Origin: an uncultured Acidobacteriota bacterium
GTDB taxonomy: Bacteria; Acidobacteriota; Polarisedimenticolia; JACPZX01
Assembly: GCA_964568735.1 (NCBI GenBank)
Contig: CAZMRF010000001.1
Span: 46,699 to 110,698 of the forward strand
Direction: 5' to 3'
DNA length: 64,000 nucleotides
Shown piece after piece: positions 9,932-25,663 of this stretch. The notes beneath the pieces were generated by a model. It made no database searches. It was given only the letters and a program-made list of their open reading frames with translations, and was not told where the DNA came from. Each line of letters opens with the position of its first letter. The stretch's first letter is position 1. The translations under genes and the position numbers were made by a program.

Positions 9932-9993
9932 TCGCGCGAGCCGGGGTTCGGCCCGGGCGCTGACGCGGGCAGGATCCTGGAGGTCTCTTCCCG

Positions 9994-11928: not shown

Positions 11929-13620
11929 TCAGACGGTGATGGTCCGCGCGGCTGCCATCAAGATCTTGGCCTCCCGGAGGCGCGCCCACCAGCCGGATCT
12001 CCGGATGAGGGCGTCGCAGAGCGAGCGCACCACCGGATCCGACAGGAGCCGCCCCGGCTCGGGGCCGGTGAAGAGGCTCCGCCGCCCGAGGGCTCGCAGG
12101 GCGCCGGCCGCCAGCGGATCCCAGCGTGCGCTCCTCGACAGCTCATTGAGGACTTCCCTCGGGATCGGCGTGCCGAGGAGGCGCCGTGAGAGATCGAGCG
12201 TGGTGCCCAGGCTCCGGCTCGCCGTCCATGAGCGTGCGGACTCCAGGAGGATTCCCCAATCCGGATCCCCGGCGGAATCCACGAGGGCGTCGATGTCGAG
12301 GAGATCCCGAAGCTTGCCGATGAACCGATCCGTGTGCGACAGGTGGATCGCGGCATGGAGGATCTGATCCTCCAGGGAGAGAACGCGGTACTTCCTCCCG
12401 TTCCTTTCGACGACGGCGGCTCTCTCGAGAAGGGGGGCGGGATCCACGTGGAGGCCGGCCGCGGGCCTCGCGAGGCCGCGGTGGATCTCGACCAGCAGCC
12501 GCCCTGCCGAGTCGATCATGGGAACCGCGTGATGGTGGGCATCGTAGAAGTCGCGCCCCCTCGCCGTCCGGATCGCGCGGAACCCCAGCTCTTTCAACAC
12601 CTCGGTGGCGCGCTCGACCTCTTCCTGGCGCACCAGGAGATCGAGATCCTGCATGGGCCGGAGGGCGGGCTGCTCGTAGAGCGTCAATCCGAGGGCCGCG
12701 CCTTTGAGGAGCACCGGCTCGATCCCTGTCCGGCGGAGGGCCTCGACCGTCCGGTCAAGCCCCTCCATCTGGATGGCCATCATGCAGGCGGCTGCGTGGG
12801 CTCCCTTCGCGAGCGCGGCACGCACCGCCGGCGGGACCCGGTCCCTGAGATCGTCCAGGGCAAAGGTGCGGTGCAGGAGGGGTATCAGGCCGAGCGCGGC
12901 GGCGGTGGGGACAAGCCTCTCCCATGCGACATCCTGGAGCAGACTCTCCCGCAGGGCCTCACGCTCCGCGGGAACGAGCCGGACCCTCGCCGCCATGACG
13001 AGCAGCTTCTCTTCCGGCCTGAGGGGGAGTCCTCCCGTCCTGCGCGCTCGATCGGGGCGGCTCTGGTGGTAGAGCAGAGCAGGGAGACTCAGAAGCAGCC
13101 GCGACGCGATCGGCCTTCCCCGCCAGCCTCCGAGGGAGAGGAGCCGCCCCTCCGTCCAGGCGATTGGCCCCGACAAGTAGGCCGCGAGGCGGCCGGCGAC
13201 ACGGCCGGGCAGCGTGTTCGTCAGGACGGCATCTCCATCCGGGCGATGAACCGCGACGACTCTGCCGACGACGTCTTCCACCGGGATCCAGGAGGCTTCG
13301 CGCCAGGAGAGAGGATCCCCCTTGACCTTGAGCCAGCCCCATCGCCGGCCTCTGCGGCCCAGCCCGATCACCCGGTGGGCGACGAGATGCGCTGCGGTCG
13401 TGTAGAGGACCACGTCCCCTTTCGAGAGTCCTTCGCGCCCGAAGCGGACCGTCAGGCTCGAGCCGTGAGGGATGAGCGGTGACATGCTCAGGCCGGAGAC
13501 CGCGATCTCGGCCCACTTCCCCTCGCGTGCCCAGAGGGCGAGGATGCCGAGCGTCAGCTCGCGGGAGAGGTCCCGTCCTGCGCGGACACTGACAACCTTG
13601 CCGGCGGCATCACCGGTCAT
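11929..13620 (-). CDS. Fusion protein: S24/S26 (LexA/signal-peptidase-like) peptidase domain plus an uncharacterised nucleotidyltransferase-family domain
   Basis: N-terminal SGLSMSPLIP...KGDVV matches the S24/S26 Ser-Lys dyad context. The C-terminal region has a nucleotidyltransferase-like DLDLLV motif. GGAG RBS and an 11-nt gap to the upstream gene. Confidence 0.65.
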   Translation of the reverse strand: MTGDAAGKVVSVRAGRDLSRELTLGILALWAREGKWAEIAVSGLSMSPLIPHGSSLTVRFGREGLSKGDVVLYTTAAHLVAHRVIGLGRRGRRWGWLKVKGDPLSWREASWIPVEDVVGRVVAVHRPDGDAVLTNTLPGRVAGRLAAYLSGPIAWTEGRLLSLGGWRGRPIASRLLLSLPALLYHQSRPDRARRTGGLPLRPEEKLLVMAARVRLVPAEREALRESLLQDVAWERLVPTAAALGLIPLLHRTFALDDLRDRVPPAVRAALAKGAHAAACMMAIQMEGLDRTVEALRRTGIEPVLLKGAALGLTLYEQPALRPMQDLDLLVRQEEVERATEVLKELGFRAIRTARGRDFYDAHHHAVPMIDSAGRLLVEIHRGLARPAAGLHVDPAPLLERAAVVERNGRKYRVLSLEDQILHAAIHLSHTDRFIGKLRDLLDIDALVDSAGDPDWGILLESARSWTASRSLGTTLDLSRRLLGTPIPREVLNELSRSARWDPLAAGALRALGRRSLFTGPEPGRLLSDPVVRSLCDALIRRSGWWARLREAKILMAAARTITV

Positions 13621-13631
13621 GGAGGACTCCC

Positions 13632-16600
13632 CTACTGGCCGTAGTGGCCCAGCGGGCCCTGGCCCGTGAGGGGATCGTACGCCACGACGAGGTAGTCGTG
13701 GTCTGGGGCGTCGGCGAAGGCTCCGGCGTGGGTGAAGAGCGGAGATCCGGTCACCCTGACGAGGTGGAAGGGGGCGAAGGTGTCCTTGGGGGTTCCGGCG
13801 TCGTCCGCGACGTAGACCCGGTAGAGCGCGCAGTGGTGCGTGCTCTCGATGTCCCCCCACGTGAGGACGAGGTCAGCACCGGAAGCCGAAGCCTGGACGT
13901 TGCCCAGCTCGGGCAGCGCCGACGTGCAGACGATGTCGTCGCCGCCATGGCCGGCCCTTGGATCGGTCTCACTGCCGTCGCGCCGTCCGTTGAAGTTGCG
14001 GTCCTCGGCGCCGTCCGCGACCCCGCCCCCGTCGGTGTCCGCGTCCGTGGGGTCGGTGGTCGTGTTCGGATCCGCATCGGGCACGAAGAATCCCTGGCCT
14101 ACGTTGGTTCCCGGCTGAGGCACGGTCACTCCCGACTCGGTGCCGTCGAAGATCCCGTCGCCGTCGGAGTCGGGGTCGAGCCCGTTGACGAACCCGTCGC
14201 CGTCCTGGTCGACAGCGAAGGCGGGCTCCAGGCCGTCCCGGAGGCCGTCGTCGTCGCTGTCTCCGTCGAGGGGATCCGTCCCTGCGAGCTCCTCGTCCCG
14301 GTCAATGAGCCCGTCGGCGTCGCTGTCGAGCGCCAGGACCGTGGCCGGGTCGCCGAAGAAGGTCAGCTCCCTGATGTTGTTGAGGTTGGCGGGGTTCAGC
14401 GGCTGGGTGACGGCGGAGATGACCGCCATGGTGGCCGCGCGCCCGAGGACGTACTCGCGGTCGAGGAAGACGTTCCTGAAGAACCAGTCCCCGATGCTGG
14501 AGTAGTCGGAGATGTTCCCGAGGGCGGCGGGGGCCCATGCGGCCATGGCGCCGCTGGAGGGAGCCAGCACCATGGACTCCGCGAGGGAGTAGTCCACGTG
14601 CCCCGGGCCCGCGGCGGCGAGATCGATGAAATAGCCGTTGATGCAGTTCAGCGACGCCACGAAGCTCAGCCGCGAGGTCTGATCGAGGCTGTTCGGATCA
14701 TCGGAGAAGCACGGAGCCACGAAGCCGCTCGCCCAGGGACACTCCGCTGCCCACTGCGTGGTGCTGCCGTGGCCCAGGTAGGCCGTCACCAGGGAGCCGT
14801 CGTCGAAGCCGTCATGGATGAGCGAGCGCATGAGGGTGACACCCACCTGCGCCATGAAGATGTCGTTCGCGGCCATCGTCGGGGGCATGAGGCTGGCGAA
14901 TGAGTTGAGGATGGCCTCGAAGGCGGAATCGTCGTTGTCCGCGACGAACGTCGACTGCGCATTCAGCAGGGAGACGGGCGGAGCCGTCTCGTAGGCGATG
15001 AGCTTCGAGATCATCGCAGCGAGACTCGCACCCGATCGTGCCGGGAGGCGGCCGACGCTCAGCTCGGGCAGGAGGTCGGCGCCCGCGGTCGTCCCGTACT
15101 CGTTGTCGCTGGGGGTCTCGCCGATGGTGGGGAGGACCACCAGCTTCGCCGGTACGAACTGAGGCACGCCCGAGCCGAGGCTGTTCAGGTAGTCCACGTG
15201 GGCATCCCCGGCGAGCAGGACGAACTCAGGCGCCGCGCCGGGGTAGTTGGCCCACGCATTGTCGAGGAAGGCCTCGATCGCCGACGTGTTCAGGACTCCG
15301 AAGTTGAACTCGTCGTAGATGTCCTCGGTCGTCGCGACGAGAGTCCGATAACCCTGCCCCTGCCGGTGCGCCACGAGCGGCGCGAGCGCGGTGAGGAAGG
15401 CGGGATCCGGAGGCGTGATGACGATCCAGTCCGCGCCGTTGGGATCGGCCGCGAGGTTGCTGGGGACGTCCTGCGCGACGCTCACCGGGGGCTTGAGGCC
15501 CGCGACCGTCGCGGCCGCATAAAGGCGATTCGTCGTCAGGCTCTCCTGGAAGGCGATGTCGAAGGGGCCGCTCCCCGTGATTTGTCCCGGCGGGACCGAG
15601 ATCTTCTTGAGGGCGTTGGGATCCGTCACGTCGTAGAGGAGGATCCCAGAGCCGGAGTATCCCGTGAAGGCGAACCTGAACGCGCCCGGCCCCTCCCCGG
15701 CCGCGACGAGGTTGTCGGCCACGACCTTGTAGGTTCTACGGTAGGTGAGCTCGATGAAGTTGAAATAGACCTGATCGATCGGAGAGAAGTCGCCCACCAC
15801 GAACATGCGCACCGTGTTGCCGCCGCTCGACACCGTCGAGCTCGCGAGGTTTACGGAATGGTCGAACGGGATGAAGCCCGTCCAGACCTGATCATCCACC
15901 TGGGGTCCGTTGAGGAAGAGCCGCGTGTGGTGCGTCACGCCGGTCCTCCCCTGCACGTTGGCGCGCAGGTTGATCGTGTGGGGCACCGGCGAGACCTCGG
16001 TGAGCGTGATCGGGTAGGTGAGGTCCTGGCTGTTGGGGTCCCCGGTGTTCTGGCGCTTCCACCACCAGTGATCGATCGCTCCGGGAGGCACGTTCTGGGT
16101 GTAGATCAGGTCATCTTCCCTGTGCACGACCGTTTGGAACGAGGCGGGGGTAGGGGCCGGCGCGCCGAAGGTGCCATCGCGCACCGGGGGCCGGACAGGC
16201 GACCCGTCGAAGTGCAGCCAGTAGACGTTCCTGCGCGTCTGACGACCTGTCGCGGCCTTGCCGTAGAAGACGACCCTGTCGCCGGGATCGAAGACACCAT
16301 CGCTCTCGCCCGTGACGTCGACCGGAATGGGCTGGCCCATCAGCTCCAGCCGGAAGTCCCTCGGGTCGAGCATGCCGACGTTGATCCCCGCGGCCTGGAG
16401 GTCCGCAGCGGCAACTCCGTACAGTCCGTCCGCCTCGACCGTGATCTTGACGGGGGGAATCATCGACCCCGATTCCGTGAAGGCGCGGATCTGGGTCGCC
16501 TCAGCTTCCAATCCCGCGGCTCCGTCCAGCCCCTCCTGGCGGTCCAGGAGGGGGAGGATCTCCGCCGCGTTGAGAATGGCGAGGGACTGGGCCGCCCGGT

Positions 16601-17186
16601 GAATCCGGAGCCTTCCCTCCGGCCGCTCCCTGCGAGGGGGCGTGGCCTTCGCGTCGGGCACGAAGTCGATCCGGACCTCGAGGCGAGGGTGGTGGCGAAG
16701 CTCGTTGCCGGGAGCCGTTCGGACGGGATAGAGCCGGACCTCGGCGATCTGCAAATCCCGCATCCAACCGGTCCAGGCCAGCTCCGCCGACCTGGCGGGA
16801 TAACGCCCGCGGGGAGGAGGCATCGACGCAGCGACTCCGGGCATCTCCTCGTCTTCCAGACCGAAATACCTCACGACGGTCGCTTCGGGCCGGCCGGAGG
16901 GCAAGGCATGGGAGCCGCCTCTTACGCCGCTCAGGACCGGGCGCATGCCTTCGGGGATCCCGATGAGCGCGGAGGCGTAGGGAAGCCGTGGCAGCCAGGG
17001 CTCTTCCAGCTGCTTCAGCCCGGGCAGGCTCACCTGGACCCTCCCTTCCTGCGTCGAGGAGGGGGTCTGGAAGGGCCGCGGTGTCTCCAGGACGAGCGTG
17101 ACGCCGCCCGCGTCGGACGAGGCCAGGCGGACCTCCTGGGCAAGCAGCGCGGTCGAGGTGGCAAGCAGCGTCAGCGCTGCGGCCAT
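13632..17186 (-). CDS. Secreted peptidase C25 (gingipain-family) cysteine protease with thrombospondin-type-3-like Ca-binding repeats
   Basis: Signal peptide MAAALTLLATSTALLAQ. YLGHGSTTQW and SLNCINGYF match the C25 His/Cys catalytic motifs. The C-terminus has D.D.DG..D repeat runs. Confidence 0.8.
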   Translation of the reverse strand: MAAALTLLATSTALLAQEVRLASSDAGGVTLVLETPRPFQTPSSTQEGRVQVSLPGLKQLEEPWLPRLPYASALIGIPEGMRPVLSGVRGGSHALPSGRPEATVVRYFGLEDEEMPGVAASMPPPRGRYPARSAELAWTGWMRDLQIAEVRLYPVRTAPGNELRHHPRLEVRIDFVPDAKATPPRRERPEGRLRIHRAAQSLAILNAAEILPLLDRQEGLDGAAGLEAEATQIRAFTESGSMIPPVKITVEADGLYGVAAADLQAAGINVGMLDPRDFRLELMGQPIPVDVTGESDGVFDPGDRVVFYGKAATGRQTRRNVYWLHFDGSPVRPPVRDGTFGAPAPTPASFQTVVHREDDLIYTQNVPPGAIDHWWWKRQNTGDPNSQDLTYPITLTEVSPVPHTINLRANVQGRTGVTHHTRLFLNGPQVDDQVWTGFIPFDHSVNLASSTVSSGGNTVRMFVVGDFSPIDQVYFNFIELTYRRTYKVVADNLVAAGEGPGAFRFAFTGYSGSGILLYDVTDPNALKKISVPPGQITGSGPFDIAFQESLTTNRLYAAATVAGLKPPVSVAQDVPSNLAADPNGADWIVITPPDPAFLTALAPLVAHRQGQGYRTLVATTEDIYDEFNFGVLNTSAIEAFLDNAWANYPGAAPEFVLLAGDAHVDYLNSLGSGVPQFVPAKLVVLPTIGETPSDNEYGTTAGADLLPELSVGRLPARSGASLAAMISKLIAYETAPPVSLLNAQSTFVADNDDSAFEAILNSFASLMPPTMAANDIFMAQVGVTLMRSLIHDGFDDGSLVTAYLGHGSTTQWAAECPWASGFVAPCFSDDPNSLDQTSRLSFVASLNCINGYFIDLAAAGPGHVDYSLAESMVLAPSSGAMAAWAPAALGNISDYSSIGDWFFRNVFLDREYVLGRAATMAVISAVTQPLNPANLNNIRELTFFGDPATVLALDSDADGLIDRDEELAGTDPLDGDSDDDGLRDGLEPAFAVDQDGDGFVNGLDPDSDGDGIFDGTESGVTVPQPGTNVGQGFFVPDADPNTTTDPTDADTDGGGVADGAEDRNFNGRRDGSETDPRAGHGGDDIVCTSALPELGNVQASASGADLVLTWGDIESTHHCALYRVYVADDAGTPKDTFAPFHLVRVTGSPLFTHAGAFADAPDHDYLVVAYDPLTGQGPLGHYGQ

Positions 17187-17221
17187 GGAGCGGTTGCGCC
17201 GTGCATCTCTCACAGTTTCCC

Positions 17222-18406
17222 CTATTCCCTTACGATCGAGGCGATGGCGATGGCGATGTCCGAAGGGCTGCCCGAGGCGACGCGCCACGCGCTGACCGAC
17301 CCGATCCTCGATGCCAGCTCGAAGACGACGGAAGCCACCCTGCCTCCGTGTGCAGCCATCAGGCGGCCCCCCTCCCCACGGTTGAGCAGGTCACGCACCA
17401 GGAAGACCAGGAGCGAGGAGACGGGAACCTCCTCGATCTCGGGCGGGCCCGGGCGCCGAGGCACTGGCGGCCGGGATTCCTCGATGTAGAGGATCGACTC
17501 CCGATGACGTCCCTGGACGTCGATCAAGTCGGCGGCGGTCCGCCCCGTGCGGGCGAAGCTCACGGCGAGGGTTGGAAACGGGCGAGCGGGCAAGTCCTCT
17601 ATCGTCGAGGCACCTACCCTCAGCAGATCGTCCTTGAGATCTCCGGCAGCACCGGCGGCGAGGGCCATCTCGTAGCGGACATCCCCTTCCGCGCGAGCCG
17701 ACGACCATCCCTCGGGATCCAGGTAGAAGAGGTAGGAAGGAGGGCAGGCGGCGGCCGGCAGCTTCGCGCCGAGTGCCACGGGATCGACGAGCCACCGATG
17801 CGGCAGCTCGAAGGCATCGGGAAGTCCGGCGCGAACCCCTTGCGGCAGCCCGACTCCGCCCGACTTGCGGATTCCCACGGCCCGGGGGTACGGGAGAAGG
17901 AGGCCCGAGCGGCGATCGATCGGAGCGGCATCGTCGCTCAGGAAATCATATCCGCGCCGGATCAGCTCGAGGACGAGGGTCGACTTGCCGGCGAAGGCGG
18001 GCCCGGCGAGAATGATCCCTTGCCCCTTCCGGGAGACAGCGGCGCCGTGGAGAAGCAGGCTCCCCTCGATGCGGTCCATGATCGCGCCCAGGAGGAACAG
18101 GAAGGCCTGGTTCTCGGGTGAGGGTGATCCCCGGAGGTCCGTCACGCGGGAGCCGGCTTCGGCGCGCGCTCCTCCGGATCCAGAGAGCCGGACGTCGAGC
18201 TCGAGAGGATCGCCCGACTCCTCGGGGGGGAACCAGCGCCAGGCGTGATCGAAGAGAGAGAGGATCCGGGGGCTGTCGCTCCGCAGGCGGACGTCCACTC
18301 CCAGGATCCCGAACCTGCTCACGGAGTGAGGCGTCGAGTCCCCTTCGGTCCGGGCATGAAGCGGTCGCTGGATGGCTCCCTCGGATTTCATCGTGCGGGC
18401 GTGCAC
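17222..18406 (-). CDS. HPr kinase/phosphorylase-related P-loop protein (HprK C-terminal-domain-like)
   Basis: HGAAVSRKGQGIILAGPAFAGKSTLVLELIRRGYDFLSDD is an HprK-like Walker-A region. No HprK N-domain is present. Confidence 0.7.
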   Translation of the reverse strand: MHARTMKSEGAIQRPLHARTEGDSTPHSVSRFGILGVDVRLRSDSPRILSLFDHAWRWFPPEESGDPLELDVRLSGSGGARAEAGSRVTDLRGSPSPENQAFLFLLGAIMDRIEGSLLLHGAAVSRKGQGIILAGPAFAGKSTLVLELIRRGYDFLSDDAAPIDRRSGLLLPYPRAVGIRKSGGVGLPQGVRAGLPDAFELPHRWLVDPVALGAKLPAAACPPSYLFYLDPEGWSSARAEGDVRYEMALAAGAAGDLKDDLLRVGASTIEDLPARPFPTLAVSFARTGRTAADLIDVQGRHRESILYIEESRPPVPRRPGPPEIEEVPVSSLLVFLVRDLLNRGEGGRLMAAHGGRVASVVFELASRIGSVSAWRVASGSPSDIAIAIASIVRE

Positions 18407-18508
18407 CGTCTCTCCCGAAGGAGCAGGAGGCTGGAAGCGACTAAAGGGCCGACGAGGCGTCCGATCCCGCCGGTGCCGAAGGTCCCGATCCCCCAGCTCC
18501 GGCCCGGC

Positions 18509-18814
18509 CTACCCTTCCAGTAATCCTCGCTCGGAGAAGTTCGCGAGAATGTGGAGCACATCGGCTCCCAGTTCAAGCTGCCGGCCGCCGCTGAAGGCCT
18601 GGTTCAGCGCTTCGGCGATCCCCGACGGGTCTCGCGTTCCGTCGCAGAGCTTCCAGGTGAAGAGGGCCGTCCGGTTCAGGATGTGGACCATCCCCGCCTC
18701 CCGATCGTAGAGGAGTCCCTCCTCTCCAACCTCCTGGAGCGCAAGGTCGCGTCGCGCCCTCGGCCGGGCCTGGGAGACACCCTCCCCAGGCCCGGTGGCG
18801 CCCTGCGGGGACAT
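18509..18814 (-). CDS. PqqD-family protein (RiPP recognition element-like)
   Basis: LYDREAGMVHILNRTALFTWKLCDGTRDPSGIAEAL matches the PqqD fold consensus. About 100 aa. Confidence 0.75.
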   Translation of the reverse strand: MSPQGATGPGEGVSQARPRARRDLALQEVGEEGLLYDREAGMVHILNRTALFTWKLCDGTRDPSGIAEALNQAFSGGRQLELGADVLHILANFSERGLLEG

Positions 18815-18822
18815 CCGGTCCG

Positions 18823-20211
18823 TCAGTCCTCGACGACGAGGAACCAGGTCTGACTGTTGAGCGTGCCGCCCTGTGCCGAGCGGCCGACGACCTTCCAGTA
18901 GACCCCGCCCTCGCCGGCCACGGCCATCTGGTGCACCTCAGAGCGCTCGTGCGGGCTGAGCCTCCGGGTGCGCCCCGCTCCCGCCGGGATCTCCATCGTG
19001 GACTCCTGCGGGAACGTCGGATCCGCCGACATGAGGACTCTCGTGGGGACGGGCTGGTCGGACTGCCACTTGAGGGTCACGACGCGGCCGGCCTTCGAGT
19101 CGTAGGCGGGCTGCACGAGCCGCAGCGGAGGCGCCGGCGGGTTCGGTACCGTCCGCTCTGGCGGATGGATCGTGTTGAAGCCGCCGAGATCGAAGTCCTC
19201 GAGCATGTAGTGGTACTTCACGCCGTTGACCGCCGTCATGTCTTCGAAGCTGTAGGAGGCCCCGCTGACGTCGCTTCCCAGCCCCGGGAGCAGCGCGTTG
19301 GTGACTCGCTCGAACCTGCCCGAGCGCGCTTCCTGTCTCAGAACCGCGAAGCCGGCGTTGTCGATCTCCGAAGAGGTGTCCCACCGGACCGTGACTCTGC
19401 CGTCGCCCGGCTCCACGGAGAAGGACGAAAGCGAGATGAGGAGATCTCCGGGGCCGCAGGGGGTGATGAACCCGCTGCCGCCCTGGACTCCGGCCTGGAA
19501 GCGCGCCACGGCGATCATGACCTTGTCCCCCGGCGGGATGATGGAGGGCAGGGAGGTGAAGGAGCATGCCGTGTAGCTGCTGATGTTCCCGGCGACCTGG
19601 ATCGTGAAGGTGACGCTCTGGCCGGCAAGGATCTCGAGCGGATTGCCACCGCTGGCGCCCGTCGAAATCCCCTTGTTGGCGAGGAGGACGTTGAAGGCCC
19701 CCATACCATCCATCTTGAGGTTCTTCAAGGAAGAGGAGGGGTGCGAGTCGACGACGTTGTCCGTCCGGTTGCTGTCGAAGGCGCGCTCCCAGACGAGAGC
19801 TCCCGTCTCTGACAGCAAGGTCATTCCCGTCACACCCGGAGGCGTGTTGAAGGAGAGGCCGGTGAGGCTGGCGGTGGTCGTCGTTCGGTTGAAGACCTGG
19901 AGGGTCAGGATGCCGGTAGTCCGGGTGTAGGAGAAGACGAAATCGGCCTCGGCGATCGTCCCGTCATCAAGTCGGCCGGGGTTGCTGAAGGCCGAGCCAT
20001 TGCTCGAGAGGGAGCCCTGGCCGCCCAGCTGCATCCCGCTCACCGTGGTGTCCTGGCTGGGACAGTTGTTCTGAGTCGGGACGCACAATCGCTGTGCCCA
20101 GGCCGGGCTGGAAGCGACCGAGATCAGTCCGATCGCGAAGATGACCATGACGAGAAGCCGTACCTTGGTGCCACCGACGTCGATCGACATCTTGGGTATC
20201 CCCAGGCGCAT
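18823..20211 (-). CDS. Secreted protein of unknown function
   Basis: Cleavable signal peptide (MSIDVGGTKVRLLVMVIFAIGLISVASSPAWAQ) followed by a 430-aa Ser/Thr/Gly-rich beta-type sequence. It is tightly packed with the PqqD gene (8-nt gap). Start ambiguous (20211 or 20190). Confidence 0.55.
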   Translation of the reverse strand: MRLGIPKMSIDVGGTKVRLLVMVIFAIGLISVASSPAWAQRLCVPTQNNCPSQDTTVSGMQLGGQGSLSSNGSAFSNPGRLDDGTIAEADFVFSYTRTTGILTLQVFNRTTTTASLTGLSFNTPPGVTGMTLLSETGALVWERAFDSNRTDNVVDSHPSSSLKNLKMDGMGAFNVLLANKGISTGASGGNPLEILAGQSVTFTIQVAGNISSYTACSFTSLPSIIPPGDKVMIAVARFQAGVQGGSGFITPCGPGDLLISLSSFSVEPGDGRVTVRWDTSSEIDNAGFAVLRQEARSGRFERVTNALLPGLGSDVSGASYSFEDMTAVNGVKYHYMLEDFDLGGFNTIHPPERTVPNPPAPPLRLVQPAYDSKAGRVVTLKWQSDQPVPTRVLMSADPTFPQESTMEIPAGAGRTRRLSPHERSEVHQMAVAGEGGVYWKVVGRSAQGGTLNSQTWFLVVED

Positions 20212-20338
20212 CCTCCGGGCCGCGGAGAGCGCAGTTACTTTCGTTGACGCTCCGGCGTGGCCCCTGCCGGTATGCCGGGACCGCCGAGGCCTCCTCACCC
20301 CTCCGCCGGGCTCACCTCGCGCGGCGGGACCTTCTCAC

Positions 20339-20470
20339 TCAGAATCCGAAGGGAACGGTGCCTGTGTACGCCTGAGCGGGACCCATCGCCTCGAGGATCT
20401 CCGATTCGCTCACCGTCCGTATCTGAGGAGCCACGTATTCGATCCGGTCCATTCCGTCTGTGCGGTTCAT
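20339..20470 (-). CDS. Candidate 43-aa precursor peptide (MNRTDGMDRIEYVAPQIRTVSESEILEAMGPAQAYTGTVPFGF)
   Basis: GGAGG lies 10 nt upstream of the ATG. It sits in a lower-GC intergenic stretch at the head of the PqqD operon. It has a YxxP (YVAP) leader-like motif and atypical codon usage (aca, ata, gga, gtt). Confidence 0.4.
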   Translation of the reverse strand: MNRTDGMDRIEYVAPQIRTVSESEILEAMGPAQAYTGTVPFGF

Positions 20471-20916
20471 TTTCTGCCTGCCTCCATGTCCATGATGTCC
20501 ATGCGTCGCAGAGCGCCGCGCGGGGTCGTCTCGGGGAGATTCGAGTTCAACCGATGGCTCTCCGGCACGATGCATGGAGAGTCAGGGGCCGCAGCGGATC
20601 CTGCGCCACCGGCAGATGGCGGGCGCACCGTAAGGAATCGAAGCGGGATTCCCCTCTCACGCTTCGTCCTGTCAGGCAGTCAGGCAGGTAGGACTGGTTC
20701 ACCCCTCGTTTTGTGCTGGGCCAGAAGTGCTCTGAAAATACTCAAACTCCTCGCACTCGTCAAGGGCTTGCCATGGGTTAATTGCTCATGGCTACAGGGA
20801 ATCCGGCCCGTGCGGACGATTGGTGCCATTCGGAAAGGTGATCGCGGTCCGCCTTAGTGGATGACCGATCTGTCTGTTATGGATTGTCGAGCGGCCGGGA
20901 ACTCGAGAAGGCTGGA

Positions 20917-21567
20917 TCAGTTGGAGAGGAGGGTACCACCCGGGTAGGCGCCTCCCCCGAGGATGTGAGTCGTGGTCGCCTGGGTGGAGGGATCCAGGAA
21001 GAAAAGAGCCGTGCCCGAGCTGCTGTCGGTCCCGACGAAGCCTATGGGACTGGTGACGCCCTTCTGCGTGATGTTGAAGGTGACTCGCACCACGGTTGCC
21101 CGGCCCGATCCGCCGACCTTCACGAACGCCGGTGGGGTCAGCGTGATCGTCCCGAGGACATCGCCCCCGCTCAAGGTGCAGGCCGGAGTTCCAGCCAGGA
21201 GCTGGTTGCCCGGGAAGAAACTTCCGGCTGTACAGCCGACGAAGTTCGCCACCGTTGAATCGAAGGAAATCTCGAAGGCCAGGCCGCTCACGCTCATGGA
21301 GGCATCGCAATCGGTGACGACGATCTCCAGCTCCACACCAGAGCCGACGACCCTGCCCAGCTGGAGCGAGACCTGGTCCGCGATCGGGCAGTCGGCCGAT
21401 GCCGCGGGCGTGAAGACCGCATTGGGGGTCGTCCCGGCGATCGCGGAAGGGAGATCGACTTCTTCGTCGCCCGTATTGCAGCCGGGGACGAGAGCCACCG
21501 CCAGAAGCACCGCTCCGGCGATGGCGCCCCGTCGCAGATTCGTCTCGACGCGAGCAAGGTTCATCAC
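20917..21567 (-). CDS. Lipoprotein of unknown function
   Basis: Signal peptide with lipobox LVPGC, and a Thr/Gly/Ser-rich beta-type body. Its start overlaps the upstream gene stop. Confidence 0.55.
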   Translation of the reverse strand: MMNLARVETNLRRGAIAGAVLLAVALVPGCNTGDEEVDLPSAIAGTTPNAVFTPAASADCPIADQVSLQLGRVVGSGVELEIVVTDCDASMSVSGLAFEISFDSTVANFVGCTAGSFFPGNQLLAGTPACTLSGGDVLGTITLTPPAFVKVGGSGRATVVRVTFNITQKGVTSPIGFVGTDSSSGTALFFLDPSTQATTTHILGGGAYPGGTLLSN

Positions 21568-22382
21568 GGGAATGGGCCCACCCTGCCGAAGTTGGCGAAA
21601 AAGATGGCGATGTCAGCCCCATTAATGCGTCCGTCGACGTCGAGGTCGTTTCCGACGACGTAGATGCCGTCGCCGGATACCGATGGATAGGTCAGAAGCA
21701 GGATGATGAGATCCCCATTGTCGATCCGGTTGGAGCCATCCAGGTCCAGGCGGGCCAGATTCACCGTGACGCTGAAGCCGTTGGGCTTGGAGCCCACCCC
21801 TCCTCCGACGTTGGTCACTGACACGGTCCGAGTCGCCACCTGCGCCAGAGGATCCGCGCTCAACGTCGTCACGAGCGTGCTCGGCGCTCCCGTGGAGTTC
21901 ACGGCCCCGACGGTGATGCCGGCGCCGAAGCTCACGGTGGCGCCCGCAGAGAAGTTGTCGCCGGAGATCGTCACGCTCAGAGCGGACTGCCCCTGACGCA
22001 TCGAGGTCTGCGAAAGGGTCCGGACGGTCGGGGTCAGGCTGGGCGTGGTGCTCCGGACCGTGGAGAAGCCGCTCTCGTTCCCGCTCAGATCGAATGCTGT
22101 GAGGGCGAGGAACCAGGTCTGGCCCGCGGTGAGCTGGAGGCTCGCGCTCGTCGCAGCAGGCCCCAGGGTCACGAACCGATCCGCCACAGCCGCCGCCTGC
22201 GCCGGGAGCAGGTTGAAGATGTTGGGGTCGATGTCCGCGTAGAGCCTGTACCCGGCCAGATCGGGCTCCACGTTTGCCGTCCAGACGACGTTGACGGTGC
22301 CCTGGAGCTGCGCCAGGGCGGGTGTCGCCACGGCGCATGCGAGCGCCAGGGAGACGAGGGCGCTGCGCAGGCGGCTACTCAA
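21564..22382 (-). CDS. Secreted FN3-like domain protein with a C-terminal type-I dockerin
   Basis: Signal peptide ALACAVATPALAQ. C-terminal duplicated Ca-binding segments DLDGSNRIDNGDL and DVDGRINGADIAIF with dockerin spacing. Confidence 0.65.
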   Translation of the reverse strand: MSSRLRSALVSLALACAVATPALAQLQGTVNVVWTANVEPDLAGYRLYADIDPNIFNLLPAQAAAVADRFVTLGPAATSASLQLTAGQTWFLALTAFDLSGNESGFSTVRSTTPSLTPTVRTLSQTSMRQGQSALSVTISGDNFSAGATVSFGAGITVGAVNSTGAPSTLVTTLSADPLAQVATRTVSVTNVGGGVGSKPNGFSVTVNLARLDLDGSNRIDNGDLIILLLTYPSVSGDGIYVVGNDLDVDGRINGADIAIFFANFGRVGPFP

Positions 22383-23079
22383 GGTGAAGATCCCCGACCG
22401 CGAGCGTCCATGGCATGTCGCGGCCTTCGATATCGAGCAGGCGCACCTCCGTGAGCCCGAGCGGCACCGGTCCGGTCGTCAGGATCTCGAACTCGAGCTC
22501 GACGAGCGTCTCGACGGAATCGAAGCCCCCGGGCAAGGCGGAGCGGTAGATGCTCACGAGGCCCGGCACCGACGGGGACTCGCGGGCGAGAAGGGCGCCC
22601 CGCCCCGTCGGGCGGAACCCTGTATATCGGATCTGCGAGGGATCGGCTCCTATGTCGAAGGACGCGTGCTGCAGGCCCTCGAGGCCGTCGAAGAGGGTCA
22701 CCTTGAGGACGACGAGACCCCCCGCACCGGGCTGGACAATCGAGGCATCGAGCCTCACCTGCGGCACGGCGTCCGCGATCCCCTCAGGGTTCCGGATCGC
22801 GCGGCGGTTCTGGAACCTACGGCCAGCCTTGCCCTGGCGCGTCTTCGCTGCTGCGGCCGAAGCCCTGATCCCGGCGCGGCCCGGGTCCTCCGGCGGCGCC
22901 GCGGACCCGGCCCCGGCAAGGCCTATCGCCGCCGCGGCGAGCCCTGCCAGTAGCCACCGGAGCGCGATCGTCTTGAAGCCTCCCGGTTTCAATGGGACCT
23001 CATCAGGGGACGACCATGAATCCCGCCGGGGCAGCAGGGGCCATGCTGTCGGCGAGTGTGAAGGAGTACGGTGGATCAT
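22375..23079 (-). CDS. Secreted protein with a putative cohesin-like beta-sandwich domain
   Basis: Signal peptide (LLAGLAAAAIGLAGA) and beta-strand-pattern sequence (VVLKVTLFDGLEGLQHASFDIGADPSQIRYTG...VELEFEILTTG). Assignment tentative and start uncertain. Confidence 0.35.
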   Translation of the reverse strand: MIHRTPSHSPTAWPLLPRRDSWSSPDEVPLKPGGFKTIALRWLLAGLAAAAIGLAGAGSAAPPEDPGRAGIRASAAAAKTRQGKAGRRFQNRRAIRNPEGIADAVPQVRLDASIVQPGAGGLVVLKVTLFDGLEGLQHASFDIGADPSQIRYTGFRPTGRGALLARESPSVPGLVSIYRSALPGGFDSVETLVELEFEILTTGPVPLGLTEVRLLDIEGRDMPWTLAVGDLHLE

Positions 23080-25663
23080 TGAGAACGTTCGGCGGTGAGT
23101 CGAGATCCGCGGCAGTGATCAGCACGTACACGGTGCTGCCGGAGGGAAACGCCGCGGGAGCCGGCGTGAAGGTTACGACGAACTCCTGAGAGGTCGTGCC
23201 CACCTGGCTGATCTGAGGGCTGACGATCGTGTTAGGATCGGTCGCGATCGTGCCGGGATTGAGGCCGAGGCGCATCTGGATGGTGGCGCTGTCCACGCCC
23301 AGCCCGAAGTCCACGACGTGAGCCGAGACCGTAGCACCCGGGATCACTCCGAGGGCGCCGGGGGCGGGATTCTGCTGCGTCAGCACGGGCGCCTGCGGCT
23401 CGGATGAAACCCGCACGCGGAACCCGTTGTGCGACCAGCTCCCCATCACGTTCTGGTGCTGGTCCCGTTGCCGGACGCGCACGTAGTAGTCCCCGGGAGG
23501 GAGCGTGCTGATGTCAGGGAGGGTGTACCCTTGTGTCCCCGTGGTGATCTCGCCGCTTCCGAACCTCGGCCGCGAGCCATTGACGCTGTCGAAGGTGGGG
23601 ACGATGTCCACCTGCACCTCGAAGGCTCCCTGCGAGTCCGTGCCGGGATAGAGGACCGGGTCGAAGGCATTCAGAAGGGTGTCGGGGTCGACGATGGTCC
23701 ACGTGAACCCCGGCGTGCTGTCCCCGAGCGTGGCAGAGGGCTGGAAGGTGTAGGGCGGAGGAGCCACACCGGCCTCAAGCGCCCCCGCGTCCCGGATGGC
23801 GCCTCCCCCGAGGGGAACGGGCAGATCCACCCTGTTGGGGTCGGCCGGCTCTATGGCAGGGCTGCCGGCGCCCAGACGGAAGTCGTCCCCCGCGCTGTTG
23901 ACGAACAACGGATCGCAGGCGGGATTGGAGCTGCCGGTCGAGGTCAGCGCAACGGGGCAGTTCCTGGCAAACACTATTACATTCGCGTCCTGAGGGTAGG
24001 CCAGGATGACGTCATTGTTGTTGCTGAATAGGAAGTTGTCCTCGATAACGATGCCCGCGGCGGCGGAGAACTGCGCTGGAGGGCTGATGCGCGCATCTGA
24101 GAAATCCATCGCAATGTTGTTGTCCACGAAGATGTTGTTCCGGACCGTCGTGAACTTGGTGTGATGGCCGAAGCTGATCCCGTACTGGCACCTGACGAAA
24201 GTGTTGTTCTCGATATGGATTTTCCCCGAGCGGAGAAGCAGGAATCCCGCCCCGAATCCGGCCGATCCACTCACGTCGTAGACGAGGTTGTTTCGGGCCA
24301 CGGCTGAGTCCGAGGAAAGGTAGAAGGCAACGGTCCCGGAAGAGGGCGCGCCGTTGTGAAAGACGTTGTCCTCGAGGAGGGCCCCCTCGTCGCCGCTGTT
24401 GTGGATCTGGATGGCCGTGTGCCCGTTGAAGTTCGAGAACTCGTTCCCGCGGATCTCCACGTGCCTGGAGCCTGCGACATCGATGTGATCGAACATCTCC
24501 GTGGCGAAGATGGAGTCCAGAATCCTGTTGCCTTCGCCGCCGCCCACGAGCTGAACGCCGGTGGCCGCGGCGTTGAAGGTGGCGGAGAAGGTGAGGTTGC
24601 GCAGCGTGATGAAATCGGCGTTGTTGATGTAGACGCCTACCTGGAGCCCGGAGCCCTTGATCTCGACGCCATCGATGGTCCAATAGGAGACGCGGGAAGG
24701 CGAGCCGATGAAGGCAATGGCTGAGAAGGGCTGGCTTCCGGCCGCGGGCCCCTCGATGGTGGCCAGCTCGCCCGGGAAGCTCCGGATGGTGATCGGATTG
24801 CCGGGAGTGCCGCTCCGGGCTCCCCCGCTTGGCACGATCCGCACATTCTCCCGGTAGGTTCCCGCTCTCAGGTTGAGGAAGTCCCCCGGAAAGAGATCCC
24901 GAATCCCCCGGTTCACGGTCTTGAAGGGGCTGGCCTGGGTTCCGGTGTTGGTGTCAAGGCCCGTGGGGGAGACGAAGAGCTGCGTCGGGGCGGGGTTCAA
25001 CGCGGGGAAGGCGAAACCGGGAATGGCGCCCGGGAGCGCGTCCGAGGCCGCGGCAAGGCCGTTCGGAGCGAGAGGGACCTGGTTCATCTTGAAGACGCCC
25101 GTAGAGAAGTTGGCCGGCGAGGCCGTCCAGGAGGCGTCGCCGTTCGCCTGCACCCGCATCCGCCAGTAGATCAGATTCGCCCGGCTGTCGATCGGAAGAC
25201 GGTTCCCGGACGAGTTGCCGGTCGGAACGGTGGGGTTCCCGTAGCTGGTGGTCGTCGCCGCGTTCAGCGCCCCCTTGTCATTCGTCCCGCTCTCCCAGAA
25301 CCAGAAGGGGCTGCCGAACCCGGGATCGTCGTCGACCTGGATCTGCCAGTTCGTCTGGCTCCCGGGGCCAGGGAAGACCCAGCTGAAGTCGGGGACCTTG
25401 TTCGTGAGGCGCAGATTGTTGACGACGCCGGCTACCCGCATCGTATTGGGATCGACGACGGGCTGCGCCCAAGCCGGAAAGCAGCCCGACGCTAGGAGCG
25501 TCAGGATCGCGAGGACTTGCAGGGTTCGATTGACGGCACCGGCTGGCGCGTCGTCCCGGTCGTGAGCGCGCGGACACTCCCGCCCACCCGAAAGCCGCGC
25601 CGACCGCGAGCTACCCGACATCCTCCTCCCTGTGTCGGCCATAAGTCCTCTTACCCTAGCCAC
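23003..25663 (-). CDS. Secreted right-handed parallel beta-helix (pectate-lyase-fold) protein with C-terminal Ig-like domains
   Basis: Signal peptide LAILTLLASGCFPAWAQ. Repeated N..F..N.I motifs (NNTFVRCQYGISF, RNNIFVDNNIAMDF) typical of beta-helix repeats. Confidence 0.7.
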   Translation of the reverse strand: MARVRGLMADTGRRMSGSSRSARLSGGRECPRAHDRDDAPAGAVNRTLQVLAILTLLASGCFPAWAQPVVDPNTMRVAGVVNNLRLTNKVPDFSWVFPGPGSQTNWQIQVDDDPGFGSPFWFWESGTNDKGALNAATTTSYGNPTVPTGNSSGNRLPIDSRANLIYWRMRVQANGDASWTASPANFSTGVFKMNQVPLAPNGLAAASDALPGAIPGFAFPALNPAPTQLFVSPTGLDTNTGTQASPFKTVNRGIRDLFPGDFLNLRAGTYRENVRIVPSGGARSGTPGNPITIRSFPGELATIEGPAAGSQPFSAIAFIGSPSRVSYWTIDGVEIKGSGLQVGVYINNADFITLRNLTFSATFNAAATGVQLVGGGEGNRILDSIFATEMFDHIDVAGSRHVEIRGNEFSNFNGHTAIQIHNSGDEGALLEDNVFHNGAPSSGTVAFYLSSDSAVARNNLVYDVSGSAGFGAGFLLLRSGKIHIENNTFVRCQYGISFGHHTKFTTVRNNIFVDNNIAMDFSDARISPPAQFSAAAGIVIEDNFLFSNNNDVILAYPQDANVIVFARNCPVALTSTGSSNPACDPLFVNSAGDDFRLGAGSPAIEPADPNRVDLPVPLGGGAIRDAGALEAGVAPPPYTFQPSATLGDSTPGFTWTIVDPDTLLNAFDPVLYPGTDSQGAFEVQVDIVPTFDSVNGSRPRFGSGEITTGTQGYTLPDISTLPPGDYYVRVRQRDQHQNVMGSWSHNGFRVRVSSEPQAPVLTQQNPAPGALGVIPGATVSAHVVDFGLGVDSATIQMRLGLNPGTIATDPNTIVSPQISQVGTTSQEFVVTFTPAPAAFPSGSTVYVLITAADLDSPPNVLNDPPYSFTLADSMAPAAPAGFMVVP

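Follow-up and report, generated by a model that had tools for sequence, protein, structure and literature searches.

A putative RiPP operon related to the linear polyphosphorylated peptide pathway at the end of an acidobacterial exopolysaccharide locus

Linear polyphosphorylated peptides (LPPs) are encoded by lppA-K-B-S-D-N clusters that lie within capsule loci and have been described as restricted to Bacillota (Popov et al., Nat Commun 2026, PMC13381572). Besides a precursor whose leader bears YxxP, the set comprises an RRE encoded as a discrete protein, an HprK-like kinase, a leader peptidase of the SipW type and an NTP_transf_5 enzyme. LppK polyphosphorylates Ser3 of the core and tolerated neither Thr nor Tyr there; the SipW-type peptidase LppS removes the leader and requires the RRE; the tyrosine of the YxxP motif is found at position -16; and LppN was inactive in the sole test of any LPP nucleotidyltransferase (PMC13381572). 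In lasso peptides that become phosphorylated and glycosylated (paeninodin, pseudomycoidin), the ribosomal peptide is likewise acted on by both an NTP_transf_5 enzyme and an HprK-like kinase, a PqqD-type protein binds its YxxP/WxxP leader, and no hexose is added to phosphoserine without the NTP transferase PsmN, which was modelled on ANT(2'') (PMC6993621).

Here we compare these systems with a locus in a 64,000-nucleotide stretch of DNA (the window) from an uncultured Acidobacteriota bacterium. The closest characterised system is the LPP family of Bacillota: as in LPP clusters, the window combines a short precursor bearing a YxxPx[V/I] leader with a discrete PqqD-type recognition protein, an HprK-like kinase, a cytoplasmic SipW-type Ser/His/Asp peptidase (all by prediction) and an NTP_transf_5 enzyme, lacks a macrolactam cyclase and is embedded in a polysaccharide locus. 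An earlier note on this DNA had called the locus RiPP-like but not a lasso system, which is supported by the conserved precursor-like peptide and the absence of lasso cyclase and B2 peptidase; its statement that substrate and chemistry are not known is partly out of date, since the related LPP pathway of Bacillota was characterised in 2026 (PMC13381572).

Operon layout and conservation

The six-gene operon is real, with both its gene set and its tight spacing borne out: pep43, sec491 and the genes for the PqqD-like, HprK-like, C25 and S24-NTase fusion proteins share the minus strand (6/6; Table 1). The gap between sec491 and PqqD is 8 nt, as read from the sequence, and that between C25 and S24-NTase is 11 nt, with about 102 nt between PqqD and HprK and about 148 nt between pep43 and sec491. 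The C25 signal peptide begins at GTG 17213, 8 nt past the kinase stop, and the 36 nt given previously for this gap (alongside 8 and 11 nt, all of which are present) hold for ATG 17186.

Table 1. Features of the operon and its upstream neighbours, in window positions
Feature	Position	Strand	Basis
S24-NTase fusion, 563 aa	11929..13620 (ORF extends to 13860)	-	TIGR02228, 2e-8 (N-terminal); PF14907, 2e-50 (C-terminal)
PorU-like C25 cysteine peptidase, secreted	13632..17213 (ORF extends to 17288)	-	PF01364, E = 1e-60
HprK-like P-loop protein, putative peptide kinase	17222..18406	-	PF07475, E = 1.4e-7
PqqD-like peptide-recognition protein (RRE), discrete	18509..18814	-	PF05402, E = 8e-10
sec491 secreted partner	18823..20190 (ORF extends to 20298)	-	signal peptide and three β-sandwich domains
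pep43 precursor peptide, 43 aa	20339..20470	-	RBS GGAGG 10 nt upstream of ATG; homologues
Promoter-like site TTGACG-17-TATTTT, predicted	20735..20763	-	heads conserved 5' leader of ~260 nt
Upstream accessory genes (four)	20917..25663	-	each with signal peptide; Pfam/NCBIfam matches
Cohesin-like lipoprotein	20917-21567	-	upstream accessory, signal peptide
Choice-of-anchor-Z repeat and dockerin-like protein	21564-22382	-	upstream accessory, signal peptide
234-aa protein	22375-23079	-	upstream accessory, signal peptide
β-helix pectate-lyase-like protein	23003-25663	-	upstream accessory, signal peptide

At least 12 further loci carry the same gene set, their proteins being 30-90% identical, and a DNA-pattern search with the peptide motif gave 24 metagenome matches, every one of them (24/24) a short ORF of pep43 design; the arrangement is thus well beyond chance. 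Unlike the LPP clusters of Bacillota, the labelled relatives come mostly from Acidobacteriota or Polarisedimenticolia. Most close loci are syntenic, belong to one lineage and share the same downstream genes, so that part of the co-conservation reflects vertical inheritance. In one relative, L082, the gene set is surrounded by entirely different flanking genes, and there the peptidases accompany the kinase although no PqqD gene is present within 10 kb. The earlier note had named a lack of co-conservation, for example PqqD and the HprK-like gene travelling apart from the peptidases, as what would speak against it; the set is co-conserved, and this test therefore does not refute it.

The note's unit (11929-20470) stands as a group of six genes, whilst the true unit is larger: the operon is the tail end of a ~34 kb exopolysaccharide locus, with four secreted-protein genes upstream. 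These accessory genes are kept in most close loci, but L002 and L059 either lack them or have them rearranged, which places them outside the strict core. The putative promoter is the sole sigma-70-like match across 11.6-21.1 kb, and its TTGAC block and later blocks of the 5' leader are conserved in L053, L074 and L051. The genes that we profiled in the 11.9-45.8 kb interval gave no match to an asparagine-synthetase-like cyclase, a transglutaminase-like peptidase or an ABC transporter.

The precursor peptide and its putative cytoplasmic enzymes

The translation of pep43 is MNRTDGMDRIEYVAPQIRTVSESEILEAMGPAQAYTGTVPFGF. Judged by 29 distinct relatives with an identical C-terminal motif, the 43-codon ORF is a real gene for a conserved precursor-like peptide, and its earlier nomination as candidate precursor gains from the fixed geometry of these homologues: all 29 unique sequences keep the spacing of a near-invariant 9-mer, Y-[TS]-G-x-Φ-P-F-x-F, with the stop codon immediately past the final F. 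The leader (residues 1-34) carries a YVAPQI recognition-type motif, an acidic stretch and the GPAQA junction, and the core (residues 35-43) reads YTGTVPFGF. We placed the junction here because distant relatives keep a leader ending in GPAQA and then continue into different cores; in L081, L085 and L086 the sequences part directly past GP[AVG]Q[AL]. All 29 YTG/YSG peptides have Ser or Thr at core position 2, and so do L082 and, with their CSP cores, L081 and L086, the only exception being the Ala of L085. This Ala, together with the GQL that replaces AQA before the Tyr in L082, indicates that the classical small-residue -1/-3 rule is not universal. Orphan copies of the peptide gene occur among housekeeping genes in L065 and L070.

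The domain assignments made previously (PqqD, HprK-like, C25 and S24/S26-nucleotidyltransferase) hold in profile searches, and the peptide, PqqD, kinase and fusion proteins are each predicted to lack a signal peptide or transmembrane segment. By comparison, the YxxPx[IV] leader motif is of the type bound by PqqD-type recognition proteins; the PqqD-like protein itself is weakly related to the LPP, cluster-3 and lasso RRE profiles (12-33 bits) and distant from the LppB profile (12-26 bits). In the HprK-like protein, GPAFAGKST and SDD are invariant across 24 homologues, and the Walker A and DD motifs align with the solved HprK structures 1ko7 and 2qmh; the match to TIGR04352 (1e-14) lies under its cut-off.

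The N-terminal domain of the fusion protein appears to be a SipW/Sec11-type Ser-His-Asp peptidase and putative leader peptidase, with Ser in GLSMSP, His in AHRV and Asp in KGDP, and the C-terminal domain is predicted to be an NTP_transf_5 enzyme of nucleotidyltransferase fold: GxSMxP, AHRV, KGDP, MxDxDLLV and HHH are all invariant. Its AF2 model (pLDDT 82.9, pTM 0.83) returned ANT(2'')/LnuA nucleotidyltransferases and SpsB, SipA, SEC11C and LexA as Foldseek matches, the ANT(2'') structures being those used in the modelling of PsmN. The N-domain shares 35% identity with LppS across 115 residues and scores 46.5 bits with the LppS profile and 54.8 bits with one built from RRE-linked homologues of other phyla, with no match to the true-SipW profile; no transmembrane segment is predicted in the fusion protein (maximum 19-residue hydropathy 1.36).

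Several features set the window apart from LPP clusters: peptidase and nucleotidyltransferase form one polypeptide, an MsbA-like ABC exporter is missing, and the leader lacks HQxIxFET, matching the LPP consensus only in YxxPx[IV]. LPP spacing applied to pep43 would put the cut after residue 27 instead of 34. Whereas LPP cores vary, span 10-170 residues and carry Ser at position 3, that of pep43 is a fixed 9-mer whose position 2 is Thr/Ser. Further, a PorU-like C25 peptidase and a secreted three-β-sandwich protein always adjoin the window-type operon.

Secreted partners and alternative readings

The C25 peptidase was described earlier as secreted and calcium-repeat-bearing, in agreement with its signal peptide and its CglD-like, Asp-rich calcium-type repeats. 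It resembles the type IX secretion sortase PorU, likewise of the C25 family, in also being secreted, in aligning with PorU models over ~700 residues that extend to the N-terminal side of the catalytic domain, and in conserving the YLGHG (His840) and LNCINGY (Cys882) motifs. A curated-level PorU was rejected (NF033707, 157 bits versus a cut-off of 420), and the NF052324 score of 176 bits is also under cut-off. Unlike PorU, the window protein bears the calcium-type repeats and a distinct, conserved C-terminal β domain ending in GPLGHYGQ, its gene shows translational coupling to that of a cytoplasmic kinase inside a peptide-modification operon, and no T9SS genes were seen. In case of sec491, a hydrophobic signal stands at the N-terminus, and neither a Pfam or NCBIfam match nor an enzyme fold was found.

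The C25 gene follows the kinase gene in L080, L082, L086 and L087, and the two genes overlap or nearly abut in related loci. As distant relatives pair both with radical SAM/SPASM enzymes and Cys-containing cores, kinase and C25 form the deeper conserved unit. The radical SAM/SPASM sister systems (L081, L086, L087) share with pep43 the leader family YxxPx[IV]...[ED][IL]L..[LI]GPxQA, and with the operon the full-length HprK-like protein and C25 neighbour, with an S24 peptidase in L087; they carry a radical SAM/SPASM maturase and Cys-containing cores where the window has the NTP_transf_5 domain and YTG core, and none attains the Scm (SynChlorMet, ScmC/ScmD) equivalog cut-offs.

An alternative would be that two unrelated modules have been interleaved by history: a cytoplasmic LPP-like module (peptide, PqqD, kinase, S24-NTase), and a surface module in which the C25 peptidase processes sec491 and the upstream cohesin/dockerin-like proteins for a polysaccharide or biofilm matrix, the peptide never meeting the C25 protein. 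Different predicted compartments with no encoded exporter, the synteny of most close loci within one lineage and the PorU-like architecture (PorU acts on secreted proteins) all suit this reading, which we nonetheless hold to be unlikely: the genes are interleaved (sec491, PqqD, peptide, kinase, C25, S24-NTase), only 8 nt at most separate the C25 frame from that of the kinase where the two do not overlap, this pair is kept both beside radical SAM/SPASM enzymes (L080, L086, L087) and between different flanks (L082), and a sec491 paralogue often directly precedes the peptide gene. Still less probable is that the HprK-like protein serves as a constant processing or hand-over ATPase of the leader family, comparable to shared export/cleavage machinery, with the chemistry coming only from the variable enzyme (NTP_transf_5 or radical SAM/SPASM). 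The full-length family (209 representatives in an exhaustive search, E <= 1e-30) does pair with very different modifying enzymes and cores, L085 lacks Ser/Thr at core position 2, and the Pfam domain of ScmC, a protein without known function, matches weakly; against this, the invariant Walker A and HprK-type DD motifs align with true HprK kinases, all studied HprK-like proteins of peptide clusters (LppK, PsmK, PadeK) are kinases, and Ser/Thr is kept at position 2 in all variants but one.

The HprK-related kinase and PqqD families named in the earlier note did not hold up: the best NCBIfam matches of both proteins are to these families, but HprK_rel_A reaches 54.4 bits against a cut-off of 200 and PqqD_rel_X 22.1 against 35, and for the SynChlorMet cassette ScmC reaches 18.1 against 125 and ScmD 21.6 against 100, with no ScmE/F-type radical SAM gene adjacent. 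With all scores far under the curated cut-offs, membership at equivalog level is rejected and either assignment is very improbable. A degenerate or atypical lasso cluster is effectively refuted and carries next to no weight with us, even though the YxxP leader, discrete PqqD, HprK-like kinase and NTP_transf_5 enzyme are typical paeninodin-type accessories and a PGA_cap protein encoded nearby shows family-level similarity to the lasso epimerase MslH: neither cyclase nor B2 peptidase was found among the profiled window genes or called in a related locus, and the 9-residue core offers no Asp or Glu for a macrolactam. The kinases of the phosphorylated lasso peptides act on a C-terminal Ser (PMC6993621), whereas pep43 ends in Phe.

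A proposed LPP-like pathway

We thus consider that the locus is probably a RiPP operon related to the LPP pathway. In the cytoplasm, the PqqD-like protein would hold the pep43 leader whilst the HprK-like protein transfers phosphate to the Ser/Thr that occupies position 2 of the core (Thr36 here); the SipW-type domain of the fusion may then cut at or near GPAQA|Y, and its NTP_transf_5 domain could, by analogy with PsmN, add a further group to the phosphate or the neighbouring Tyr. Least certain is the later part outside the cytoplasm, where the C25 peptidase and sec491 might act on the peptide after its export, either processing it or attaching it to the polysaccharide or to a protein of the cell surface. 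Every step, including chemistry, export route and C25 role, is one that we infer from homology and conservation. Counting against this mechanism are the two secreted partners without an encoded exporter, which leaves the compartments with no obvious connection; the rejection of Thr/Tyr by LppK, the Ala of L085, the lack of PqqD in L082 and the orphan peptides; and the inactivity of LppN, the departure of pep43 from LPP consensus and spacing and the partly vertical co-conservation. In spite of this, the likeliest role of the operon is the modification of a very small and nearly invariant peptide, and it differs from LPP in its fused enzymes and two secreted partners.

Gene content, conservation and surroundings

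The ORF map and Pfam/NCBIfam profiles bore out the earlier note's description of the operon: six minus-strand reading frames (11929-20470), in a window of approximately 68% G+C, carry the domains it had assigned. Judged by homologues and ribosome-binding sites, the longest open reading frames were too long for three of these genes: the gene for the S24-NTase fusion starts at the ATG at 13620, 11 nt past the C25 stop, and the gene for the C25 peptidase most likely at the GTG at 17213, 8 nt past the kinase stop, which yields a normal signal peptide. Signal peptides or transmembrane segments were predicted for sec491, C25 and four upstream proteins, and none for the fusion, the kinase, PqqD or pep43.

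Features of the operon and its surroundings in the window
Feature	Coordinates	Strand	Description
pep43	20339-20470	-	candidate precursor, encodes MNRTDGMDRIEYVAPQIRTVSESEILEAMGPAQAYTGTVPFGF; GGAGG box 10 nt before ATG
sec491	18823-20190	-	secreted partner; strongly hydrophobic N-terminus; no Pfam or NCBIfam match
PqqD	18509-18814	-	PF05402, 8e-10
HprK-like	17222-18406	-	PF07475, 1.4e-7; best NCBIfam match HprK_rel_A
C25	13632-17213	-	PF01364, 1e-60; CglD-like Asp-rich repeat block
C25 C-terminus	13632-13660	-	GPLG[HA]YG[QR]
S24-NTase fusion	11929-13620	-	N-terminus TIGR02228, 2e-8 (archaeal-type signal peptidase I); C-terminus PF14907, 2e-50 (NTP_transf_5)
5' region	20471-20767	-	~300 nt; blocks TTGAC, CTGGCCCAG, CCTGCCTGAC, AGAGGGGAA, CTGCCGGCGGCGCAG
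Sigma-70-like match	20763-20735	-	TTGACG-17-TATTTT; only one in 11.6-21.1 kb; 265 nt upstream of pep43
Small secreted trio	20917-23079	-	cohesin-like lipoprotein; choice-of-anchor-Z repeat + dockerin-like protein; 234-aa protein
PGA_cap	25751-26980	-	
Polysaccharide locus	~45.8 to 25.7 kb	-	
500-aa protein	37351-38853	-	in polysaccharide cluster; no Pfam match
BMC-domain shell protein, aldehyde dehydrogenase	9581-11745	+	directly downstream of operon; dehydrogenase with long Pro/Ala-rich tail
Radical SAM/SPASM protein	49427-51028	-	
Metallo-β-lactamase/Rieske/SCP2 fusion	50922-52568	-	adjoins radical SAM/SPASM gene

The set of sec491, PqqD, peptide, kinase, C25 and S24-NTase fusion is found again in order, with 35-90% protein identity, on all related contigs whose length suffices to show it. 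The downstream genes (aldehyde dehydrogenase, BMC-domain protein, DUF2520, pseudouridine synthase and Lgt) are common to most of these loci as well, so that part of this conservation reflects vertical descent within one lineage. The question of co-conservation is settled by three further loci (L082-L084), since these retain the sec491-like, peptide, kinase, C25 and S24-NTase genes (the kinase and C25 genes overlapping as ATGA) despite a kinase of approximately 30% identity and entirely different flanking genes. Thus, the recurrence by which the earlier note had proposed to check its operon was found, including where the surroundings are unrelated. No PqqD gene was found within 10 kb at these three loci, family HMM included: PqqD is dispensable in one lineage (L082). 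Where relatives carry a label, it is mostly Acidobacteriota or Candidatus Polarisedimenticolia; the locus L002 and the protein P0075 bear the labels 'Patescibacteria group' and 'Candidatus Saccharimonadales'. L002 has the full operon, its close relative L059 retains the downstream genes of Acidobacteriota-labelled loci, and the deviating labels are probably binning errors.

The operon closes a polysaccharide locus on the same strand, which encodes, in order, a Polysacc_synt_2 dehydratase, Wza-like exporter, Wzz/GNVR protein, UDP-GlcNAc 2-epimerase, Wzy-like polymerase, GT2 and GT4 glycosyltransferases, DegT aminotransferase, polyprenyl glycosylphosphotransferase and PGA_cap, with genes for one β-helix protein and three proteins of cohesin/dockerin-like type thereafter. 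In the small secreted trio, the extreme C-termini of the cohesin-like lipoprotein (LGxxxYAGGxxxSN) and the choice-of-anchor-Z/dockerin-like protein (ADLAIFFxxFGxxxPFP) are strongly conserved, and the trio may form a cohesin-dockerin-type surface assembly. The C-terminus of the 500-aa protein scores approximately 84 bits to LpxG/YaeI-type metallophosphodiesterases, under cut-offs. Downstream, the BMC/dehydrogenase pair also lies beside the operon in two related loci (L051, L053) and the dehydrogenase in three more (L052, L054, L059). In the 5' region of the operon, the TTGAC box and the blocks following it are conserved in L053 and L074 and partly in L051; a structured RNA in this leader was rejected, with a fold z-score of -0.28 and no Rfam match.

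Precursor peptide, leader and sister systems

A homologous peptide is present in six of the seven loci reached via kinase homology (L001, L002, L051 and L053-L055; not L052), with two copies each in L001 and L054. When metagenome-collection DNA was scanned with a pattern encoding GPA[QR]AY[TS]GxxPF, all 24 matches were short ORFs sharing features that the pattern leaves open: a YxxPx[IVF] motif precedes the Gly by exactly 18 residues, Thr/Ser occurs at +7, Glu/Asp at +10 and Leu at +14, and the stop codon comes directly after a terminal x-Phe. The family comprises 29 distinct sequences, and this conservation rules out a chance ORF: the small ORF that the earlier note had put forward as candidate precursor is a real conserved gene. 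Its position varies, being upstream of sec491 in the window, in the PqqD-kinase interval in L002, L057, L059 and L079 and at both places in L001 and L054, and it remains within the cluster in all of these. A few copies are orphans that lie among housekeeping genes, for example in L065 (810-947) and L070 (7023-7142), with AddAB-type helicase-nuclease, Na/Pi-cotransporter-like, Usp and dihydrolipoamide dehydrogenase genes as neighbours and none of the operon enzymes on the same contig. A second peptide with the GPAxA[YFW] junction motif was not found in the window.

When the kinase alignment was used for an exhaustive profile search, 209 representatives matched end to end at E <= 1e-30, against 27 matches from a word-indexed search. 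A scan of a genome collection listed at least two close loci among distant HprK-like genes. Among the related loci are sister systems (L080, L081, L085-L087), none of which reaches a curated NCBIfam cut-off.

Gene content of sister systems and junctions of the related peptides
Locus	Genes	Leader end	Core
Window		...YVAPQIRTVSESEILEAMGPAQA	YTGTVPFGF
L082		...YEAPALRVVTEEEILAQLGPGQL	YTGALPFDF
L085	PqqD, 57-aa ORF, HprK-like, signal-peptide protein	...YETPTIRSYTEQELLAQIGPAQL	YAAGGMGMGDMPYPM
L081	56-aa ORF, radical SAM/SPASM, HprK-like, FG-GAP protein (C-terminal half homologous to sec491)	...YEPPKIITYSGDEILDELGPAQA	CSPVSSVCPFPG
L086	PqqD, 51-aa ORF, radical SAM/SPASM, HprK-like, C25-like N-terminus	...YEPPKVVTYSGDELLAELGPVQA	CSPFGVI
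L087	radical SAM/SPASM, HprK-like, C25, stand-alone S24 peptidase		
L080	SPASM domain, HprK-like, C25		

The leader is common to the window peptide and the sister small ORFs, and its Tyr is separated from the Gly of GP by the same spacing of 18 residues throughout. Beyond GPxQ[AL], similarity among the window, L082, L085, L081 and L086 peptides ends, which is the best available evidence for a leader/core boundary at this point and leaves a 9-residue core in the window. The residues ahead of the Tyr are not always small (L082, L085). Ser/Thr occupies core position 2 everywhere except in L085, which fits a kinase acting beside the junction by analogy with LppK, the kinase of the linear polyphosphorylated peptide (LPP) family, on Ser3. 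Taken together, the gene orders and the shared leader point to a constant part (leader, HprK-like protein and C25 or secreted partner) and a variable one (NTP_transf_5 versus radical SAM/SPASM), with S24 also in the constant set in L087. In this last locus (6857-12264), the kinase-C25-S24 trio is followed by VanZ-like, glycosyltransferase, second radical SAM/SPASM and phosphodiesterase/sulfatase-like genes, which may be further tailoring genes. The window has a radical SAM/SPASM gene as well, beside the metallo-β-lactamase/Rieske/SCP2 fusion.

Comparison with characterised peptide-modification systems

The nearest characterised system is the LPP family (lppA-K-B-S-D-N), whose clusters are located in capsule loci and were stated in 2026 to be restricted to Bacillota (PMC13381572). 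They encode a discrete peptide-recognition protein (RRE) LppB, the HprK-like LppK, the SipW-type LppS, the NTP transferase LppN and an MsbA-like pump: LppK places several phosphates on core Ser3 and rejects Thr, LppS (catalytic S29, H68 and D93) requires LppB for its cut after T-1, and LppN displayed no activity when tested (PMC13381572). In pseudomycoidin, the addition of hexose to phosphoserine depends on PsmN, a related NTP transferase (PMC6993621).

In the HprK-like protein, GPAFAGKST and SDD are invariant among aligned homologues and coincide in alignment with the P-loop and DD motifs of HprK proteins of solved structure; on these motifs and its PF07475 match, it is a putative kinase of the kind found in LPP clusters. 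The peptidase domain displays invariant GxSMxP, AHRV and KGDP, the Ser/His/Asp arrangement of SipW/Sec11-type peptidases, and is by the same token a putative SipW-type leader peptidase. With profiles built from the sequences in Supplementary Data 1 of PMC13381572, this domain scored 46.5 bits against the LppS type (35% identity to LppS itself) and 54.8 bits against cluster 3, which is uncharacterised in that paper and comprises RRE-linked homologues of, among others, Acidobacteriota, Myxococcota and Chloroflexota, and gave no match to the genuine-SipW profile. As in LPP clusters there is a discrete PqqD-like RRE gene, which is absent from the related L082; its product scored 12-26 bits with the LppB profile and 12-33 bits across LPP, lasso and cluster-3 RRE profiles, values that are weak and do not discriminate. 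Sequence searches of the PDB with PqqD and the fusion gave no useful relatives, and LppB was not reached.

The NTP_transf_5 domain, with MxD[LI]DLLV and HHH conserved across aligned homologues, is a further likeness to LPP, but unlike in LPP it is fused to the peptidase; no such fusion occurs in the sequence dataset of the LPP paper. The AlphaFold2 model of the fusion (pLDDT 82.9, pTM 0.83) matches SpsB, SipA, human SEC11C and LexA with its N-terminal part and ANT(2'')-Ia, LnuA and other nucleotidyltransferases with its C-terminal part. The fusion family has approximately 28 members at 90% clustering, beyond which only stand-alone NTP_transf_5 proteins were found. An MsbA-like ABC exporter is also missing, with no ABC_tran match in the genes profiled from 11.9 to 45.8 kb and none called in related loci. 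The LPP precursor consensus is YxxPxVLxHQxIxFETxxS, with cleavage after T-1 and phospho-Ser at +3 (PMC13381572); only YxxPx[IV] is common to both, whereas the window family continues x[TS][LVM]x[ED]x[ED][ILV]L[ED]x[LIVM]GPA[QR]A with an invariant Gly at Y+18, and LPP spacing would put the cut in pep43 seven residues earlier. Moreover, the fixed, near-invariant 9-mer core differs from the variable LPP cores. The locus would work most like LPP; it lacks an exporter and matches the precursor consensus only in part, and it has new parts in addition.

Other known systems fit less well. A lasso cluster was rejected: neither the asparagine-synthetase-like cyclase nor the transglutaminase-like B2 peptidase is present among the window genes profiled or in related loci, and a lasso core needs Asp/Glu at position 7-9, whereas acidic residues are not conserved anywhere in the core Y[TS]GxΦPFxF. 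The reading of the locus as RiPP-like and not lasso is supported in substance. A lasso-like feature nearby is PGA_cap, whose only solved relatives are MslH structures (8GQ9 and others) and which NCBIfam matches solely to MslH, the lasso C-terminal Trp epimerase (66 bits, cut-off 700). A C-terminal epimerase role is conceivable given the invariant aromatic residue at the end of the peptide, but we rejected PGA_cap as a dedicated peptide epimerase: the likeness is at family level only, and adjacency is limited to the window, L051, L054 and L055. The HprK-related class suggested in the earlier note did not hold up either, with 54.4 bits for HprK_rel_A (TIGR04352, cut-off 200) and 22.1 bits for PqqD_rel_X (TIGR04353, cut-off 35), below both curated equivalog cut-offs of the HPr-rel-A system. 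A SynChlorMet cassette is contradicted by ScmC (18.1 against 125) and ScmD (21.6 against 100) and by the lack of an adjacent radical SAM gene, the nearest lying approximately 30 kb off; scores for GeoRSP were likewise under cut-offs.

The C25 protein keeps the clan-CD dyad, YLGHG (His840) and LNCINGY (Cys882), in all full-length homologues. Although this dyad is present, membership of the T9SS sortase PorU was rejected, as the matches to the PorU (NF033707, 157 bits, cut-off 420) and PorU2 (NF052324, 176 bits, cut-off 450) models are partial and under cut-off; of the window genes profiled, none stood out as a T9SS component. The C25 C-terminal motif occurs in all homologues and loosely resembles GPAQAYTG of the peptide, which may be coincidence: a motif uniting peptide, C25 and cohesin-like protein (G[PG]xx[AGH]Y[ATSG]G) failed when written strictly. 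The sec491 model (pLDDT 84.8) comprises three β-sandwich domains; an enzyme fold was rejected, and since its structural neighbours are FN3-type only, sec491 offers no catalytic clue.

Proposed maturation and its implications

The best-supported reading is an RRE-guided, LPP-like cytoplasmic maturation: the recognition protein would bind the leader, the kinase would phosphorylate Thr36, the SipW-type domain would remove the leader, and the fused NTase domain would elaborate the phosphate or the neighbouring Tyr; a later extracytoplasmic step would involve the PorU-like C25 protein and sec491. The first four steps are proposed because of homology to LppB, LppK, LppS and PsmN together with conservation, the last because of persistent gene linkage only. 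That leader peptidase and NTP_transf_5 reside in one protein argues for physical coupling of their steps. The weak points are that no exporter is encoded, that the cut predicted from LPP spacing lies seven residues earlier, that small residues do not always precede the Tyr, that LppK rejects Thr, that LppN was inactive when tested and that one lineage does without PqqD. A more far-reaching proposal, which we regard as improbable, is that the YxxP...GPAQA leader and the HprK-like, PorU-like C25 and S24 proteins form a hitherto unrecognised, reusable platform for peptide maturation with different chemistries, NTP_transf_5 here and radical SAM/SPASM in the sister systems. The sortase-like C25 would then attach the short modified peptide to exopolysaccharide or to a secreted β-sandwich protein, where it would serve as a covalent tag or anchor of envelope or matrix and not as a free natural product.

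Given the LPP precedent, the locus is less surprising than it would otherwise be. Still unexpected are that its phylum is not Bacillota, that peptidase and NTase are fused, that the 9-mer core is invariant, that a PorU-like protein is among the partners and that a shared leader links it to radical SAM systems. Because the core is near-invariant, unlike variable LPP cores and most antimicrobial peptides, its fixed length and sequence suggest a conserved cellular role; a link of this role to the adjacent polysaccharide machinery or matrix is speculation. A core conserved over approximately 30 variants sets the family apart from typical antimicrobial RiPPs, and the sister systems provide a comparative handle that marks the leader end and the constant machinery. 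The coupling of a PorU-like clan-CD peptidase to a peptide-modification operon, for which we found no precedent (including no paper that places C25/PorU-like enzymes in clusters for peptide modification or describes them from Acidobacteria), may represent a new use of a sortase-like enzyme. If the LPP-like pathway holds, LPP-type modification would not be confined to Bacillota, contrary to its 2026 description.
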